DNA of 64,000 nucleotides from an uncultured bacterium (GCA_964515295.1 CAZETW010000005.1:2826-66825), one strand, 5' to 3'. Numbered from the stretch's first letter, positions 5,091 to 17,617 are shown. Made by a program: numbers and translations. Notes: generated by a model not told the origin, from the sequence alone.

Positions 5091-5618
5091 TCAGTACGCC
5101 TCATTTTCCAAGTTATCAGCGAAAATCAACCTGTCTTTTTCTTTTAATTTATTATATAGTTCTACCATCTTACCGCTTGCATCTACATAAGGGATGTATA
5201 TTTTTTTTGTAAGTTTGACCAGAAACTCATTCCGTTTATTACAGAGTTCTCTTGTCGGTCTTGTAATTAAGCCGTGAATTGGCGTTATGATTAAGATTCT
5301 ATTTTCATCTAAACCTGCTCGCCATAATTTCGGGAGACGCATATTATTCAATGACCTTGCTGGACAGATTACTATGGGTTGTATGCCTTTTATTAATACA
5401 TTCAGAATTTCCTGTTCAACCGGTGAATGAAATCCGCTGGCAATAACCAACCCATCTTCACGCCACTGGAAAGCCTGTTCCTGAATCTTTATGATAATAT
5501 TGCCTGGACATTTTGAAGAGCAAAGAAAAGCAAAATCGATTTGGTCAAGCAAACCAATGTTGCCGATATAATCGCAATGATAGTTTCGACTTTCCAAAGT
5601 CAGTTCAATATTATTCAT
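5091..5618 (-). CDS. Short DprA/Smf-like Rossmann-fold (SLOG-type) protein
   Basis: By eye, FAFLCSSKCPG...VIASGFHSPVEQEILNVLIKGIQPIVICPARSL...RILIITP...RPTRELCNKRNEF...YIPYVDASG parallels the DprA core (GSR..., SGxAxGID..AH, tiaVLgcG, SE.p, F..RNR, vvEa..SG). It overlaps the RhuM-like gene by 8 nt. Confidence 0.45.
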   Translation of the reverse strand: MNNIELTLESRNYHCDYIGNIGLLDQIDFAFLCSSKCPGNIIIKIQEQAFQWREDGLVIASGFHSPVEQEILNVLIKGIQPIVICPARSLNNMRLPKLWRAGLDENRILIITPIHGLITRPTRELCNKRNEFLVKLTKKIYIPYVDASGKMVELYNKLKEKDRLIFADNLENEAY

Positions 5619-6708
5619 CTTCTTCGCTTTTGAGTTTTTCCGGATTCTTTACGAATTTTTTGTCTTCCGATTTGATGTGTTTTTTCAAAAGATGTTTTTC
5701 CATTTCCTCCAATTGCTTCAAATCTTCTTCATTAGCAGCAAGTGCCTCTACTTTCTTTCTTTTCGCGTCAAATTCATTATAACGATCTTCGGCTATTTTT
5801 TTTGCAACCTCTGCTTTAACCTGACCTGCATGTGTTAAAAGATCTTGTTCATTGAATTTCAGAAATGCATCCAGCTTATCAGACCATTGGGCCATAGTAA
5901 CTGTTTTACGCTGGCGGGCTTGCCTTTCAGCATAATCCAGATACATGGTTACAATCTCATTAAGGTCTTTGATTTCCTCTGCCTTTAAATAATTCTTGGC
6001 AATACTCACATCTTGCTTGCGGACCACTGATCCTTTCCAGGATGTAAGCCCCATGTTGGGTTTGTTGGAATCGCCTCGTGATTCGATTAGCTCTGCTGCT
6101 GTTTTGCCTGTCACGGCCCAGAGCATTTTGTTCTGCACCTTTTTATAAAACGTTTGGGCCTGAGTAGATGTCTTGTCATAATCTATGGCTGTTGCATAGA
6201 TATCTCGGATTTTCTGATAGAAACGCTTTTCTGAGGCTCTAATATCTCGAATGCGCTCGAGCCATTCATCAAAATAATCCCACTGCTCTGCCTGCTTGAG
6301 GCGAGCGTCATCCATGGCAAAGCCTTTGATGATGTATTCTTTCAAAATCCGGGTCGCCCATATTCTGAATTGGGTGGCGCGTTTGGAATTTACTCGGTAT
6401 CCGACAGCGATGATGGCGTCCAGGTTGAAAAATTCCATCAATCGGGTGACGTCTCTGCCGCCTTCCTGTTGAACTGTTTCCATTTTGGAAACAGTTGCAT
6501 TTCTATCAAGTTCTCGCTCTTCATAAATATTTTTAAGATGTTTGGATATGGCCGGCACATTGACACCAAACAACTCCGCCATCTTCTTCTGCGTGAGCCA
6601 AATGGTCTCATCCTGAATTACTGTGTCTATCCTGATTTTGCCATCATCTGTGGTATAGAGGATTATTTCCGAACTATTCGTTTTCTTAACCATCAGTTCC
6701 TCTTTCAA
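5611..6708 (-). CDS. RhuM-family protein (virulence-protein RhuM/Fic-associated family) with K/E-rich coiled-coil tail
   Basis: ...IWLTQKKMAELFGVNVPAISKHLKNIYEERELD...AIIAVGYRVNSKRATQFRIWATRILKEYIIKGFAMDDARLKQ... is characteristic of RhuM. Confidence 0.75.
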   Translation of the reverse strand: MKEELMVKKTNSSEIILYTTDDGKIRIDTVIQDETIWLTQKKMAELFGVNVPAISKHLKNIYEERELDRNATVSKMETVQQEGGRDVTRLMEFFNLDAIIAVGYRVNSKRATQFRIWATRILKEYIIKGFAMDDARLKQAEQWDYFDEWLERIRDIRASEKRFYQKIRDIYATAIDYDKTSTQAQTFYKKVQNKMLWAVTGKTAAELIESRGDSNKPNMGLTSWKGSVVRKQDVSIAKNYLKAEEIKDLNEIVTMYLDYAERQARQRKTVTMAQWSDKLDAFLKFNEQDLLTHAGQVKAEVAKKIAEDRYNEFDAKRKKVEALAANEEDLKQLEEMEKHLLKKHIKSEDKKFVKNPEKLKSEEDE

Positions 6709-6732
6709 AGCATTTAAGAATACACATTGCTT

Positions 6733-7011
6733 TCATGCAACTTGTGGGGACAGTCCAAGTTTAACCTGCAACTCGGCGCCTGAACCAATCAAGACCATTT
6801 TCCCGACGTCGGCAAAATGGTCTGCAACCTCGTGACCCGCGGTCTCACAAGCTGTTTTCGCTTTTGAAATGACTTTAACAAAGTTATCCCATTTCGAATA
6901 ACCCAATAGATGCTGTAAATCTCTGGCAAACCAGAATTCAATGTCATTAGCTGTTTTATTGGCATGGGTTTCAAAATCTTTGGTTAGTGTTTTGATGATT
7001 TCCTTTTTCAT
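6733..7011 (-). pseudogene. DinD-like (DNA-damage-inducible protein D) N-terminal fragment, truncated after ~85 aa
   Basis: IEFWFARDLQHLLGYSKWDNFVKVISKAKTACETAGHEVADHFADVGKMVLIGSGAE matches the DinD N-terminal half. The expected LSRYACYL... C-terminal half is absent, and the RhuM-like gene starts 25 nt downstream. Confidence 0.6.
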
Positions 7012-7517: not shown

Positions 7518-7814
7518 CTAATCAATAACTCTATCAATCCAGTATTCTGGTACTCTATGTTGGTGTGCTACTGCTAAAATATAAATTTTATTATTATATT
7601 TGGTATAAACTAAATTATAGGGAAACTTTCTTAATACCGCTTTTCTTGTATTTTTTGTAATTTCTGACCATACTTCCGGAAAAATTTTTATCAGTTCAAT
7701 TGTCTTTAAAACTTCATCAAAGAATCCATCTCCAAGCCCTGGAGATTCAAGATTATAATATTTTACAGCGTCATCTAATTCAATTGATGCAGGCTCAATA
7801 AATTCAACATTCAT
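7518..7814 (-). CDS. RelE/ParE-family type II toxin
   Basis: 98 aa with ...AVLRKFPYNLVYTKYNNKIYILAVAHQHRVPEYW. Its ATG abuts the stop of the upstream antitoxin gene. Confidence 0.75.
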   Translation of the reverse strand: MNVEFIEPASIELDDAVKYYNLESPGLGDGFFDEVLKTIELIKIFPEVWSEITKNTRKAVLRKFPYNLVYTKYNNKIYILAVAHQHRVPEYWIDRVID

Positions 7815-8024
7815 TTATTTATACCGTTTTACAATTTCATCTAAAGGTACAGTATCTACTTTTCCTTCTTTTAATGCCTGATATCTTTTTTCTGATTCTT
7901 CAGCCCATATTTTTTCTATTTCTTTATCAGGTTTATCAAGACTTTGTGTTAATTTTTCAATTAACCGAAGTCTTTCGGCCGGCCTTAATTGTAATGCTTC
8001 TTTTAATATTGTTTTTGTATTCAT
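7815..8024 (-). CDS. Addiction-module antitoxin component (TIGR02574-like)
   Basis: 69 aa: ALQLRPAERLRLIEKLTQSLDKPDKEIEKIWAEESEKRYQALKEGKVDTVPLDEI. Confidence 0.7.
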   Translation of the reverse strand: MNTKTILKEALQLRPAERLRLIEKLTQSLDKPDKEIEKIWAEESEKRYQALKEGKVDTVPLDEIVKRYK

Positions 8025-8381: not shown

Positions 8382-9584
8382 TCATAAATATTTGATTTTA
8401 CATGCAAATTTGCCCGCCCCGTTATGCAAATAAACATAATTCCACCACCATGCAGACAGGTATTTTACAATCATTTCTTTTCTGGCTCTATAAGATTTAT
8501 AATGCTTCATAATACCCAGGTATGAATTCATGCTGCTGAGGAACTTCTCCTGTTCCACCCTTGTCGGCTTATGGTCACGAGCTATTTGATTTTGTTTCTC
8601 AATTGATTCATAAAAGTTACCCTTTGTACGGTTGGCAATATAAACCCGGTGCGGTTTGATTACAGCACCAGGATATTTTACACCTTTTGTAAAATGCTGA
8701 AGGTATATTTTATTGGGATGCAGATCCAGCCTCAAGTATATTTTGAGGTATGATTTAATTACCGGAATCAAGGATTTCAAATATTCTTTGTCTTTATGAA
8801 TCAGAATGAAATCATCCACATACCGGCCATAATATCTGATTTTCAAATCTCTTTTCATAAAATGATCGAATTCATTCAGGTAAACATTTCCGAATAATTG
8901 TGAAGTTAAATTTCCGATGGGCAGGCCGCAATCAGGACCGGAATGAAAAAGGCTTTTATCGTTTGGTAAACCCTGCCAGTCTTTTCTGCAGCCCTTGGTG
9001 ATGCAATCTTGGGTTGGATCGTTGAAAATGATTTTTTCGAGCAAATAAAGAACCAGATGTAAATCAAAATCCGCTCTGCCGGGTGCCGCAGATAAGGCTG
9101 ATTTGATTTTTTCAAAAAGCAGCCGTCGGTTCATGGCCATAAAATAGCCGCGGATGTCCAGTTTTAAGATATGGCAATCTTCAGTATAATTTAATGAGCA
9201 TGACCGGATAAAATGATCAATCCGTTTGATTCCGTAATGCGTGCCTTTACCCTTGCGGCAGCTGTAGCTGTCATTAATAAACATGCCCTCAAAAACAGGT
9301 GCAAGATAATTATAGAGCAAATGATGCACCACCCTGTCACGGAAGTTCGCGGCGAAGATTTCGCGCTTAACGGGTTTATTCACAATAAAAAAGATGCTTT
9401 TTCTCGGTTCGTAGGTGCGGTTCATGATCTCTTCATGCAATTCAAAAAGATTCGTTTCAAAATGTTTTTCAAAAGCCAGCGCATTGATGGTGTTCCTTTT
9501 ATTCCAGCGGGCGTCAAAATACGCCTGAAACAGATCTAACAACAGTTTCTCTTCATTTTGTTCGTCAAACAATGTTGTCTGCAT
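8382..9584 (-). CDS. Diversity-generating retroelement reverse transcriptase
   Basis: 400 aa with RT motifs, including the DGR-type GLPIGNLTSQLFGNVYLNEFDHF (SQ in place of QG) and the catalytic YGRYVDDFILI. It lies adjacent to a TR/VR pair and an avd gene. Confidence 0.9.
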   Translation of the reverse strand: MQTTLFDEQNEEKLLLDLFQAYFDARWNKRNTINALAFEKHFETNLFELHEEIMNRTYEPRKSIFFIVNKPVKREIFAANFRDRVVHHLLYNYLAPVFEGMFINDSYSCRKGKGTHYGIKRIDHFIRSCSLNYTEDCHILKLDIRGYFMAMNRRLLFEKIKSALSAAPGRADFDLHLVLYLLEKIIFNDPTQDCITKGCRKDWQGLPNDKSLFHSGPDCGLPIGNLTSQLFGNVYLNEFDHFMKRDLKIRYYGRYVDDFILIHKDKEYLKSLIPVIKSYLKIYLRLDLHPNKIYLQHFTKGVKYPGAVIKPHRVYIANRTKGNFYESIEKQNQIARDHKPTRVEQEKFLSSMNSYLGIMKHYKSYRARKEMIVKYLSAWWWNYVYLHNGAGKFACKIKYL

Positions 9585-9591
9585 TTTATCT

Positions 9592-9620
9592 GCATGGCGG
9601 CCCGTCCAAGGCCGCCATGC
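9592..9620 (-). other. GC-rich hairpin between TR and the RT start (perfect 11-bp stem, 7-nt loop)
   Basis: GCATGGCGGCC-cgtccaa-GGCCGCCATGC. It lies 16 nt after the TR 3' end and 7 nt before the RT ATG on the minus strand. No SD is visible for the RT. Confidence 0.6.
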
Positions 9621-9636: not shown

Positions 9637-9831
9637 AATCCCGAATAAGCCGGATACTAAAACCGTTTTGCTTATTGTTGTTGTTACGGTTCACGTCTGA
9701 ATTATTGTAATTCAGGTTCCGGTTCCACGCGTTATTGGTATTGTTCTCGGTAGACGACCCAAAATTGGCGTTGTTGCCGAGATTGTTGAAGTTACCATTG
9801 TTGTTGCGGTAACCACCGGGAAGCGCGGAAA
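9637..9831 (-). repeat. DGR template repeat (TR), 195 bp
   Basis: Aligns without gaps to 10471-10665 (offset 834). By hand count there are 39 mismatches. Of these, 37 fall at plus-strand T, which is adenine on the transcribed minus strand of the TR. The TR reading frame is Asn-rich (about two dozen AAY codons). Confidence 0.9.
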
Positions 9832-9985
9832 TAAAAGCAGCCGCTGAATTAATCATGCCTTCATTCTCAGAAAACATGAACTGATACCTCGCAAAAAAAC
9901 ACAAGGGGGCTGCCGGATTTAAATACGCTCGCTTGCCTGCGCCGTGGCGGCAGGCAACTCTGGCTGAACAGTCTAATACAGTTTT

Positions 9986-10016
9986 AAAGTTAAAAGTTGT
10001 AAAGTTCATAAAGTTT
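9986..10016. repeat. Left arm of the inverted repeat bracketing avd (overlaps the avd stop codon)
   Basis: The reverse complement AAACTTTATGAACTTTACAACTTTTAACTTT matches 10370-10401 (AAACTTTATGAACTTTATAAACTTTTAACTTT) with one mismatch and one 1-nt indel. Confidence 0.8.
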
Positions 10017-10353
10017 TAACAAGTCCGGATATGATTTTTGAGATTTCTTCAGCCTTTGCAGATAATTCATCTGCTTGGTTTTGTTTTAATATACTCATCG
10101 CACCTGCCAATAAAAGCATTGACCTGACCTCACCGCATGAGCCTTTGGCAACAAACAGAAAATGCTTGAATTCATTGTTTGATCTTCTTTCAAACCCCTC
10201 TGCAATATTATTCATTATTGAAACACAAGCGCGCTGAATTTGGTCTTTAAAACCATAATCTTTGCTGTTCTCAAACAGCTTGTAAACTTGAATTGTCAGC
10301 AGCTTCGCCTTCTGCCACGCAATAATTTCTTCAAACCTGTTAATCTTCATCAA
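10006..10353 (-). CDS. avd: DGR accessory variability determinant (Avd), four-helix-bundle protein of the 23S rRNA-intervening-sequence-protein family
   Basis: 115 aa: ...AWQKAKLLTIQVYKLFENSKDYGFKDQIQRACVSIMNNIAEGFERRSNNEFKHFLFVAKGSCGEVRSML. This is typical of TIGR02436/PF05635-type proteins. It is located between VR and TR. Confidence 0.8.
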   Translation of the reverse strand: MMKINRFEEIIAWQKAKLLTIQVYKLFENSKDYGFKDQIQRACVSIMNNIAEGFERRSNNEFKHFLFVAKGSCGEVRSMLLLAGAMSILKQNQADELSAKAEEISKIISGLVKTL

Positions 10354-10369
10354 TAACTTTCAACTTTAT

Positions 10370-10401
10370 AAACTTTATGAACTTTATAAACTTTTAACTT
10401 T
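10370..10401. repeat. Right arm of the inverted repeat bracketing avd (16 nt upstream of the avd start)
   Basis: See 9986-10016. The arm is embedded in a run of AACTTT-type hexamer units (10357-10406). Confidence 0.8.
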
Positions 10402-10420
10402 CAACTCAAAAATATTTTCG

Positions 10421-10437
10421 ATTCCGCTTCGCGGAAT
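10421..10437 (-). other. Small hairpin ATTCCGC-ttc-GCGGAAT 33 nt downstream of the VR end; candidate DGR target-site hairpin/cruciform
   Basis: 7-bp perfect stem with a 3-nt loop (GAA on the transcribed strand), just 3' of the target gene stop. Confidence 0.5.
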
Positions 10438-10468
10438 AAATAGTATAATAGTCGAATAGATAAATAGT

Positions 10469-11158
10469 CTAATCCCGAATAAGCCGGATACTATAACCGC
10501 CTTGCTTACCGCCGTCGCCACGGTACACGTCTGAAACACTGTAACCCAGGACCCGGCTCCACGCGCGATAGGTACCGTACTCGGTAGACGACCAAAAATA
10601 GGCGTAGTAGCCGAGAAGGCGGAAGCCACCATTGCCGTGGCGGGAACCACCGGGAAGCGCGGAAAAGCCGCTTTCATTCGTCGCACCTTCATTCGGACTC
10701 CCCCAATGTGTTGTGCCGGTTGTCTTCATCTTGCCGCCAGCAACTTCTTCGCCTCCAAGATAGTTTACCAATGTTGCCCACTCTGCGTCTGTAGGCACAT
10801 GCCAGCCTGAGGGAGCAATATTATGAACATCTGTGACAGCAAACCAGTTATATAAATAACCGTATATATCTGCGGTACTTTCACTATTATCAAAAGCACA
10901 ATAAGCGCCTGTTGATAGATTTTCCCATTGTGAATTGTCTGTAACATGATTTATCGGGGTACCGTCACAGTAATGGGTCACCTTCAAATTCTCGGCCATC
11001 CATACCTGATTACCTATTTTTACGGTTTGATATACATTACCGTCAATATCCTTAACCGTATCCGAAACCGTATTCTCGGTTGGACTCTTTTTGTTGCATC
11101 CCGTTATGAGCATCATAAATAACACTACAACCGTTAATAATGACATTGCTTTTTTCAT
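10469..11158 (-). CDS. DGR target: surface lipoprotein with a Fibrobacter-succinogenes-major-paralogous-type domain and a C-terminal variable region
   Basis: Signal peptide plus lipobox (LITGC). DIDGNVYQTVKIGNQVWMAENLKVTHY...YGYLYNWFAV...APSGWHVPTDAEWATL is typical of TIGR02145. The last ~65 codons are the VR. Confidence 0.85.
   Translation of the reverse strand: MKKAMSLLTVVVLFMMLITGCNKKSPTENTVSDTVKDIDGNVYQTVKIGNQVWMAENLKVTHYCDGTPINHVTDNSQWENLSTGAYCAFDNSESTADIYGYLYNWFAVTDVHNIAPSGWHVPTDAEWATLVNYLGGEEVAGGKMKTTGTTHWGSPNEGATNESGFSALPGGSRHGNGGFRLLGYYAYFWSSTEYGTYRAWSRVLGYSVSDVYRGDGGKQGGYSIRLIRD
10471..10665 (-). repeat. DGR variable repeat (VR), 195 bp, at the 3' end of the target gene
   Basis: See the TR entry. 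The final ~22 nt before the stop are identical to the TR. Confidence 0.9.
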
Positions 11159-16990: not shown

Positions 16991-17617
16991 ATGGAAGAGT
17001 TGAAAAATAATTCAAATGCCACGAAGACAGGGAAGATGTCTGAAAAGGGAAGTACAAAAAAAGAAAAGAAACAAAAAAAAGATAAAAAAACAAAAGTTGA
17101 AGAAAGTGCCAAAAAAGTTGTGAAAAAGTCCAAGAAGATCAGCGCTGATTTCACAGATAAAACCAGGAAGACAGCATCAGAGATTTCAGAATCAACCAAA
17201 AAAGCTACATCAGGTTTTACCAATTCAATAAAAAAAGCAGCATCTAAAATTTTTGGTTCTACTAAAAAGGCAGCAAAAAATATTGCCGGAGAGACAAAAA
17301 AAGTATCCTCAGATCTGGCTGATAAAACAAAAGAGGCAGCACCTGAAATTGCAGACAAAACCAAGAAGTTTGCCAGTGATTTTGCCGAAAAAGCAGGAGA
17401 AACGATAACCCGGGGAAAGCTTCAGACCAGGATTTTTGATTTAAAAAATAAACTGAAAAAGAAATCAGCAGAATTGGGGGGCATTTCTTTTGATTTGCTT
17501 CAGAAAAAGAAAACTACTGGTATTTATAAAGATAACAGAGTACAAGAGCTTATTGAAGAAATGAAAACACTTAAAAACCAAATTAAAGAGACAGAAAAGA
17601 AGTTAGAAGAGATATAA
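16991..17617 (+). CDS. Lys-rich repeat protein (LEA/YtxH-like amphipathic repeats), function unknown
   Basis: Repeated ..TKK(A/V)(A/S)S.. units. The C-terminal coiled coil resembles the N-terminus of the preceding protein. Confidence 0.4.
   Translation: MEELKNNSNATKTGKMSEKGSTKKEKKQKKDKKTKVEESAKKVVKKSKKISADFTDKTRKTASEISESTKKATSGFTNSIKKAASKIFGSTKKAAKNIAGETKKVSSDLADKTKEAAPEIADKTKKFASDFAEKAGETITRGKLQTRIFDLKNKLKKKSAELGGISFDLLQKKKTTGIYKDNRVQELIEEMKTLKNQIKETEKKLEEI

Follow-up and report, generated by a model that had tools for sequence, protein, structure and literature searches.

A palindrome-bounded, IVS-like cassette encoding a PF05635 protein probably occupies the avd position of a DGR that appears to have lost bAvd

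The window (the whole stretch of DNA analyzed, 64,000 nucleotides from an uncultured bacterium) contains on its minus strand a target gene with its VR, a short GC hairpin, a 114-aa ORF, a TR and an RT, in this order (Table 1). The TR/VR pair, the adjoining RT, and the adenine specificity of the differences between the two repeats, 37 out of 39 of which fall on TR adenines, identify the locus as a DGR. Two non-adenine TR/VR mismatches were counted, compared to a median of one in the 44 relatives that keep a bAvd gene, so that the repeat pair is as clean here as in those relatives. Apart from the loss of bAvd discussed below, the DGR looks intact, judging from its full-length RT and from the position of the TR/VR differences on adenines. 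A full-model match to the RT-7 RNA (RF03028) lies 17 nt from the end of the cassette described here, as its neighbor and not as a part of it; matches to this motif scored between 49 and 88 bits across loci, under the Rfam gathering score of 116.8.

Structured DGR RNA is seemingly kept upstream of the TR in this clade, where the spacing between the TR and the RT start is only ~50 nt. In the window, this interval holds a perfect 11-bp GC-rich hairpin between the TR end and the RT start codon (9592–9620, GCATGGCGGCC...GGCCGCCATGC), which might serve the DGR RNA as a stem-loop for protein binding. The RT is followed immediately by a ParE toxin/"Unstab_antitox" antitoxin pair and, farther out, by a RhuM-family gene and a Bro-N fragment (together 7518–8024 and 5611–7011, minus strand), which suggests that the neighborhood of the DGR is mobile or defense-island-like.

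Table 1 Features of the DGR and of the cassette, in minus-strand order; positions refer to the window unless another locus is named.
Feature	Position	Strand	Description
Target gene, Fib_succ_major lipoprotein	10469–11158	−	VR at its 3′ end
VR	10471–10665	−	3′ end of the target gene
Short GC hairpin, TTCCGC-gaa-GCGGAA	10422–10436	−	Just 3′ of the VR; usual DGR target-site hairpin; kept in L169 and L080
Deletion junction	10406–10410	−	~350 nt with bAvd gone between "CGAAAATATTTTT" and the 5′ end of the cassette; from the L169 alignment
Whole palindrome-bounded cassette (5′ arm, PF05635 ORF, 3′ arm)	9981–10405	−	~425 nt; from the comparison of filled and empty DGR sites
5′ arm	10355–10406	−	Six AAAGTT units and one degenerate unit (GAGTT), spaced 7–9 nt; takes in 10370–10401
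Cassette ORF	10006–10350	−	114 aa; PF05635/TIGR02436 "four helix bundle (23S rRNA IVS) protein"; profile match
3′ arm	9980–10016	−	AACTTT array complementary to the 5′ arm; takes in the final K-T-L codons along with the TGA stop
RT-7-like structured RNA (RF03028)	9830–9964	−	65 bits, E = 1e-14, full model; directly upstream of the TR
TR	9637–9831	−	195-nt repeat; repeat search
DGR reverse transcriptase	8382–9584	−	400 aa, full length
ORF-less hairpins in other loci	L118 1531–1619 and 1973–2055; L125 769–841 and 1289–1350; L002 3000–3073		Also in L020, L044, L079 and others

The 114-aa ORF matches PF05635 (114 bits, cut-off 33.8) and TIGR02436 (112 bits), and no match to the bAvd models PF22296 and NF033474 was obtained. 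The closest solved structure is that of the pentameric XCC0516 (2GSC, five chains, E = 6.5e-12). Cassette proteins are mildly basic (median pI 8.7), with a pI of 9.2 for the window protein. The subfamily is very large and well conserved, with 7,926 of the 8,000 candidates scored reaching E ≤ 1e-10, and members in KSB1, Bacteroidota, and further phyla are 60–82% identical to the window protein. This protein resembles bAvd (PF22296/NF033474) in its small size, basic character, four-helix-bundle fold, and gene position between target gene and TR-RT, and PF05635 and bAvd are recognized structural homologs (PMC10053308). It differs from bAvd in matching only PF05635/TIGR02436, and relatives encode bAvd in a gene of its own alongside the cassette ORF. 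The preliminary description of this locus had taken the ORF for the avd of the DGR; this does not hold, as the Avd of the lineage is a different protein, of the bAvd type (PF22296), whose gene has been deleted in the window.

The ORF is enclosed by two complementary arms. Read directly from the window, the reverse complement of 9986–10016 is AAACTTTATGAACTTTACAACTTTTAACTTT, and 10370–10401 reads AAACTTTATGAACTTTATAAACTTTTAACTTT; the two differ by one substitution and one 1-nt indel, exactly as first described. A repeat search delimited the arms as 9980–10016 and 10370–10406, with 37 nt that are 78% complementary without gaps and two sub-blocks complementary at 94% and 93%. Both arms are made up of tandem AAAGTT units spaced 7–9 nt (TRF), and all eight matches to AAAGTT-N1-3-AAAGTT found in the 64 kb, where 0.14 would be expected, lie inside them. 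The termini of the cassette are GTTGAAAGTT...AACTTTAAAAC. The ORF stop does lie inside the downstream arm (TGA at 10008–10006, minus strand), as had been claimed. The other arm was said to lie 16 nt upstream of the start, which is true of the TTG at 10353 and false for the ATG at 10350, the likelier start because homologs begin with MKI.RFE. The 5′ AAAGTT array reaches 10355 and therefore almost touches the start codon.

In the predicted RNA fold of 9950–10440 (minus strand), a check proposed with the original observation, the arms pair around the ORF in both the MFE and the centroid structures, with 35 flank-to-flank pairs in the MFE fold. The folding energy was −126.6 kcal/mol (z = −3.7), and none of 100 shuffles was as stable. 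The analogy that had been drawn with IVS elements is thus a fitting one, a PF05635 ORF being looped out by a predicted stem of ~35 bp. An AAAGT-like array at 17092–17133 was discarded as lysine-rich coding sequence unrelated to the arms. A scan for sigma-70-type promoters, which does not cover those of the Bacteroidota type, gave none in the arms.

We then compared 79 homologous loci taken from species-representative genomes of several phyla. Nearly all of them carry (AAAGTN)n before the start codon and a complementary (NACTTT)n from the last codons on. Of these genome loci, 74 could be scored; with the window added, the inverted-repeat score was at least 30 in 62 of 75 cases (~80%), with a median of 41, whereas direct repeats gave 19 and shuffles 17. 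The MFE folds of the cassettes contained a median of 34 flank-to-flank pairs, whereas those of bAvd genes contained 10 (p = 2e-11). Only four or five of the 79 loci are associated with DGRs, by an adjoining RT or target gene (L001, L002, L004, L005, and possibly L044). Hence, the survey of flanks suggested at the outset showed PF05635 homologs to be mostly flanked by arms, nearly all of them outside DGRs. The view of the arms as a feature of DGRs had to be abandoned: the bAvd-type avd genes of ~55 related DGRs lack them, and the arms go with the cassette. Cultured strains with the same architecture include Segatella hominis, Butyricimonas synergistica, Labilibacter marinus, and Riemerella anatipestifer.

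The placement of the cassettes is regular. The upstream neighbor is co-oriented with the ORF in 63 of the 64 determinable loci and the downstream neighbor in 53 of 64, and the 5′ arm follows the upstream stop codon by a median of 6 nt. Most arms have 4–5 units, at intervals of 9 nt (100 cases), 7 nt (82 cases), or 8 nt (21 cases). In 35 of the loci L001–L079, the first ACTTT unit of the 3′ arm lies inside the last ORF codons and encodes the nearly invariant C-terminal K-T-L and the stop (AAAACTTTATAA/TGA), so conservation of the protein and conservation of the arm are confounded there. Outside DGRs, cassettes occur among housekeeping genes; from gene names read off the flanks, these presumably include sufB and sufC on either side of a cassette, and dnaJ after another one. 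On cyanobacterial plasmids, family members were found in the arrangements cas6-[4HB]-cas4 and cmr2-[4HB]-cmr3. No cassette was found inside an rRNA gene among 20 homologous loci, Rfam detected no rRNA in the window, and no relatives of the cassette in phages were found in IMG/VR.

The fetched loci also contain 19 ORF-less hairpins made of AAAGT/ACTTT arrays, with loops of 2–40 nt and some of them inside DGRs, which look like cargo-less derivatives of the cassette. The polarity of the arrays never changes: whichever strand is read, AAAGT comes on its 5′ side, and this held for the 19 ORF-less hairpins. The opposite topology at short range was never seen in the fetched loci.

The variants AAAGTC and AAAGTT agree between the two arms of a locus (Spearman 0.72, n = 59), and odd loci have arms of TTAGGG/CCCTAA or GGAAAG/CTTTCC. 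Eight distant PF05635 genes, 28–43% identical and located on cyanobacterial and Riemerella plasmids, are flanked by units such as GGGAAAA, AAGGTTYA, AGGTGAC, AGGAGATA, and GGGTGTA. In seven of these eight loci, the downstream array repeats the upstream one as its reverse complement, and the inverted-repeat scores range from 29 to 56, compared to ~15–19 for shuffles. The genome loci contain two distant second copies that likewise stand between inverted arrays of other units. As the units are unrelated and yet inverted in seven of the eight plasmid loci, it is the complementarity that is conserved and not the sequence. The covariation anticipated for the flanks was therefore observed at this distance, with complementarity kept by quite different units.

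An exception is L166, a Pseudanabaena plasmid (1390–1980), where the long arrays around a four-helix gene between cas6 and cas4 are in direct orientation, with (AAAAGCT)n on the upstream side and (AAAAGCC)n on the downstream side. In two other cyanobacterial plasmids, L162 and L163, the 5′ arrays are Shine-Dalgarno-like (AGGAGATA and AGGTGAC), and the 3′ arrays therefore resemble the 3′ end of 16S rRNA (CCTCCT and TCACCT). Judged from these sequences, the cyanobacterial stem would sequester the Shine-Dalgarno-like motifs, which bears on the proposal that the duplex occludes translation.

The mismatches of 58 stems showed no excess of G·U (60 G·U compared to 58 A·C), as would be expected if the sense RNA were under selection, so complementarity may be maintained at the DNA level and not via the sense RNA. 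The partner arm was the best match of an arm in only 7 of 75 loci, AAAGTT-type arms being largely interchangeable, and in the DGR sub-clade the arms of orthologous cassettes are as similar to each other as are both arms inside one cassette. Pairing-specific co-evolution is thus not demonstrated within the subfamily. No signal of co-evolution between the protein and the repeat unit was detected there either (mean identities of 0.69, 0.66, and 0.68). We had considered that the deletion of bAvd re-templated the 5′ arm by concerted evolution; this was dropped, as orthologous arms are equally similar.

To place the cassette within the DGR lineage, 80 DGR loci were gathered by RT similarity (52–72%). 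Upstream sequence was long enough in 66 of them, of which 64 have a bAvd-type gene (PF22296), and this gene usually starts ~760 nt before the RT; the cassette ORF of the window starts at −766, the same position. The bAvd-type gene of the relatives scored 62–66 bits on PF22296 (cut-off 40). L118 is the only one of the loci gathered by RT similarity to have a cassette ORF besides bAvd. In L004 and L001, KSB1 relatives, the target gene and the TR are separated by two four-helix genes of 114 aa each: the first is a PF22296 match (62 bits) that also scores 60 bits on NF033474 (DGR Avd), below the cut-off of 80, and the second is the arm-flanked PF05635 gene. Overall, bAvd and the cassette occur together in about ten related DGRs (L001, L002, L004, L005, L118, and L168–171).

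All filled sites share one junction, with the cassette located between the last codons of bAvd and the RT-7-like motif and with the 5′ arm encoding the final 3–4 codons of bAvd and its stop (...WQKS/VKS-stop). In the empty-site DGRs, the RT-7-like element begins ~10 nt past the bAvd stop, and the RT-7 (RF03028) matches there cover the full model, with E between 1e-8 and 1e-19 and scores below the gathering score. A decayed site is found in L080 (2620–2850), where both arms are intact and the ORF has decayed to ~46 codons; this ORF is broken by a GC-rich palindromic insert of the C6/G6 type. The existence of empty, filled, and decayed sites in related DGRs, as well as the identical arm type flanking most homologs outside DGRs, strongly supports the proposal that the gene arrived as an IVS- or MITE-like insertion. 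No consistent target-site duplication was seen when six filled DGR sites were compared to empty ones, where repeat-like junctions could hide a short one.

The closest relative of the window is P0002 (L168–171), with 82% protein identity and 85% nucleotide identity over the ORF, and it keeps both bAvd and the cassette. The alignment of L169 with the window shows unbroken homology across the VR, the hairpin, and "CGAAAATATTTT", followed by a clean gap of ~350 nt that spans bAvd, and homology restarts in the 5′ arm. No bAvd-like sequence was found elsewhere in the 64-kb window. By this gap and this absence, the window is the only case seen of a cassette without bAvd. With bAvd deleted, the cassette ORF is the sole remaining Avd-like gene.

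Taken together, 9981–10405 (minus strand) is probably one inserted IVS-like cassette, whose arms would pair in the host RNA and loop out the PF05635 ORF. The sequence comparisons show an insertion between the last codons of bAvd and the RT-7-like RNA, followed in the window by the loss of bAvd. The host transcript would carry the cassette by read-through from the host gene, and the arms would zip into a stem of ~35 bp with the ORF looped out, like the terminal stems of ORF-bearing 23S rRNA IVS. Such a loop-out would keep the flanking RNA juxtaposed, placing VR-proximal RNA beside the RT-7/TR RNA in the window and, in the filled relatives, the 3′ end of bAvd beside the RT-7-like/TR RNA; this junction is of importance in the Bordetella phage, in which the 3′ end of avd pairs with Sp. 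The stem would be a long dsRNA and a candidate substrate of RNase III, by analogy with the Coxiella IVS. We hold this RNA-level sequence of read-through, pairing, and loop-out to be finely balanced, leaning slightly to the doubtful side, because of the missing G·U excess, the interchangeable arms, and the equal similarity of orthologous arms. Upkeep of the palindrome at the DNA level, or binding of a pentamer to the arrays, are live alternatives that are compatible with the RNA model.

Other origins of the arms were weighed against this inserted cassette. They might be the terminal inverted repeats of a MITE-like non-autonomous DNA element moved in trans or by hairpin-specific enzymes, with the RNA pairing incidental. 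The insertion polymorphism among related DGRs, the 19 ORF-less hairpins of identical array type in the fetched loci, the arms retained by the decayed copy of L080, the endpoint of the bAvd deletion exactly at the cassette terminus, and the stems without G·U bias would all agree with such an element. We nevertheless consider it unlikely: neither a transposase nor a target-site duplication was seen, and the upstream gene running in the same direction in all but one of 64 loci suggests that the cassette relies on transcription of its host. Moreover, the length and the sequence of the arms are highly variable even in close relatives and the units are unrelated across subfamilies, which is a poor fit to the recognition of specific ends by a transposase. 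It is likewise improbable, and compatible with the inserted cassette rather than exclusive of it, that each arm is a row of sites to which the pentameric four-helix-bundle protein itself binds, in autoregulation or RNP assembly, the arrays being inverted because both flanks bind one protein. The typical 4–5 units per arm would match the homopentamer of 2GSC, the unit sequence differs between protein subfamilies, the proteins are basic, and all five bAvd protomers contact an RNA stem-loop (bioRxiv 10.1101/2023.10.23.563531). However, the unit variant does not track protein similarity within the subfamily, ORF-less hairpins exist, and no sequence specificity is known for the binding of nucleic acid by Avd (PMC5758913).

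Three further readings carry very little weight. The stem reaches up to the start codon and includes the stop codon, and the cassette ends 17 nt from the RT-7-like motif, as might be expected of a DGR-specific regulator evolved in place to control avd translation or to define the 5′ end of the TR RNA; this is very improbable and already contradicted by the distribution, since ~55 related DGRs have a bAvd-type avd without a stem and ~75 of the 79 homologous cassettes lie outside DGRs. DNA inversions are common in Bacteroidota, to which many of the carriers belong, and a small gene between inverted repeats could recall a DNA segment that inverts in phase variation. This scenario is contradicted by the shared orientation of ORF and upstream gene in 63 of 64 loci, and the cassette has no associated recombinase; we regard the scenario as barely credible. 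The possibility that the repeat is a chance low-complexity AACTTT satellite, named in the preliminary description and in keeping with arms made of short repeats, is refuted beyond reasonable doubt: in 64 kb the motif is confined to the two arms, and arms paired in this way are found again in dozens of independent genomes.

Some of these elements can be combined with the inserted cassette in a single, broader reading, which we put forward tentatively and with more doubt than conviction. PF05635 proteins would be the cargo of a widespread and hitherto undescribed class of palindrome-bounded cassettes with ORF-less derivatives, which would settle after the stop codons of transcribed genes and be harmless through loop-out. 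The rRNA IVS would then be the special case located in rRNA, the protein of the window cassette would have replaced bAvd naturally in a DGR that is otherwise intact, and the arrays of ~5 units may dock the pentamer. If true, this would tie selfish cassettes to how DGR Avd arose, or to its interchangeability.

The closest known counterparts of the cassette are the ORF-bearing 23S rRNA IVS of Leptospira and Coxiella. The Coxiella burnetii IVS is 428 nt long, RNase III cuts its 28-bp terminal stem, and its S23p ORF lacks a Shine-Dalgarno sequence (PMC4990558). The window cassette has a similar length (~425 nt), encodes a protein of the same PF05635 family from an ORF that also lacks a Shine-Dalgarno sequence, and is enclosed by a long complementary terminal stem (~30 bp in IVS; arms of 31–37 nt in the window, in a predicted fold). 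In contrast, its arms are tandem arrays of a 7–9-nt unit, and it is located in a DGR, the other cassettes lying between protein-coding genes and not in rRNA. For this last reason the cassette is not an IVS in the strict sense, though it is built like one. With MITEs and REP/BIME it has in common the short unit bounded by inverted repeats and the ORF-less intergenic derivatives, but its arms are variable tandem arrays with no fixed terminal sequence, no transposase is linked to it, no target-site duplication was seen, and its orientation to the upstream gene is strict.

Embedding of 23S_rRNA_IVP genes in operons, those of cas among them, has been reported (Zhang & Ye 2014, PMC3936711), and CPR rRNA insertions with family members are known (PMC11270868). 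Single members inside operons were also found here, in the cas6/cas4 and cmr2/cmr3 cases. In the accessible part of these two papers, the gene is treated as possibly associated with the system, and flanking inverted arrays are not described. A large DGR survey reported one DGR with two avd genes and did not mention flanking repeats. In open-access text, we found no published description of inverted tandem arrays around non-rRNA PF05635 members, of an IVS-type cassette inserted in DGRs, or of a loss of bAvd leaving such a cassette in place, in agreement with the earlier impression that this arrangement had not been described.

These results matter for the annotation of DGRs, where a PF05635-like gene near a DGR RT is routinely named "avd": two four-helix genes can fill this slot and one of them is an intruder, which affects what is inferred on the evolution of Avd. 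With an intact RT, TR, VR, and RT-7-like RNA and an IVS-type protein only, the window represents a natural experiment in which the replacement of bAvd by such a protein could be tested. The role of IVS proteins and the origin and spread of ORF-bearing IVS have been in question since 1993, and a searchable architecture (inverted short-unit arrays, a site just after a stop codon, and strict co-orientation) offers a direct handle on both. It also accounts for the genes of this family inside cas and other operons without functional membership there.

In a group of near-identical bAvd-type DGRs (L104, L107, and L114), the MFE folds pair the end of the VR (GGGCTTTTTAAC) with a segment 3′ of avd (GTTTAAAAGC...GGGAC) over 19–22 bp, a predicted pairing that may be due to chance or may be a real long-range contact. 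L002 is Segatella hominis BCRC 81118 (NZ_SGVY01000096.1), a cultured human-gut isolate that carries the target gene, bAvd, the cassette, the TR, and the RT, and whose cassette protein, P0007, is recorded on 252 contigs. This isolate provides a practical experimental system.
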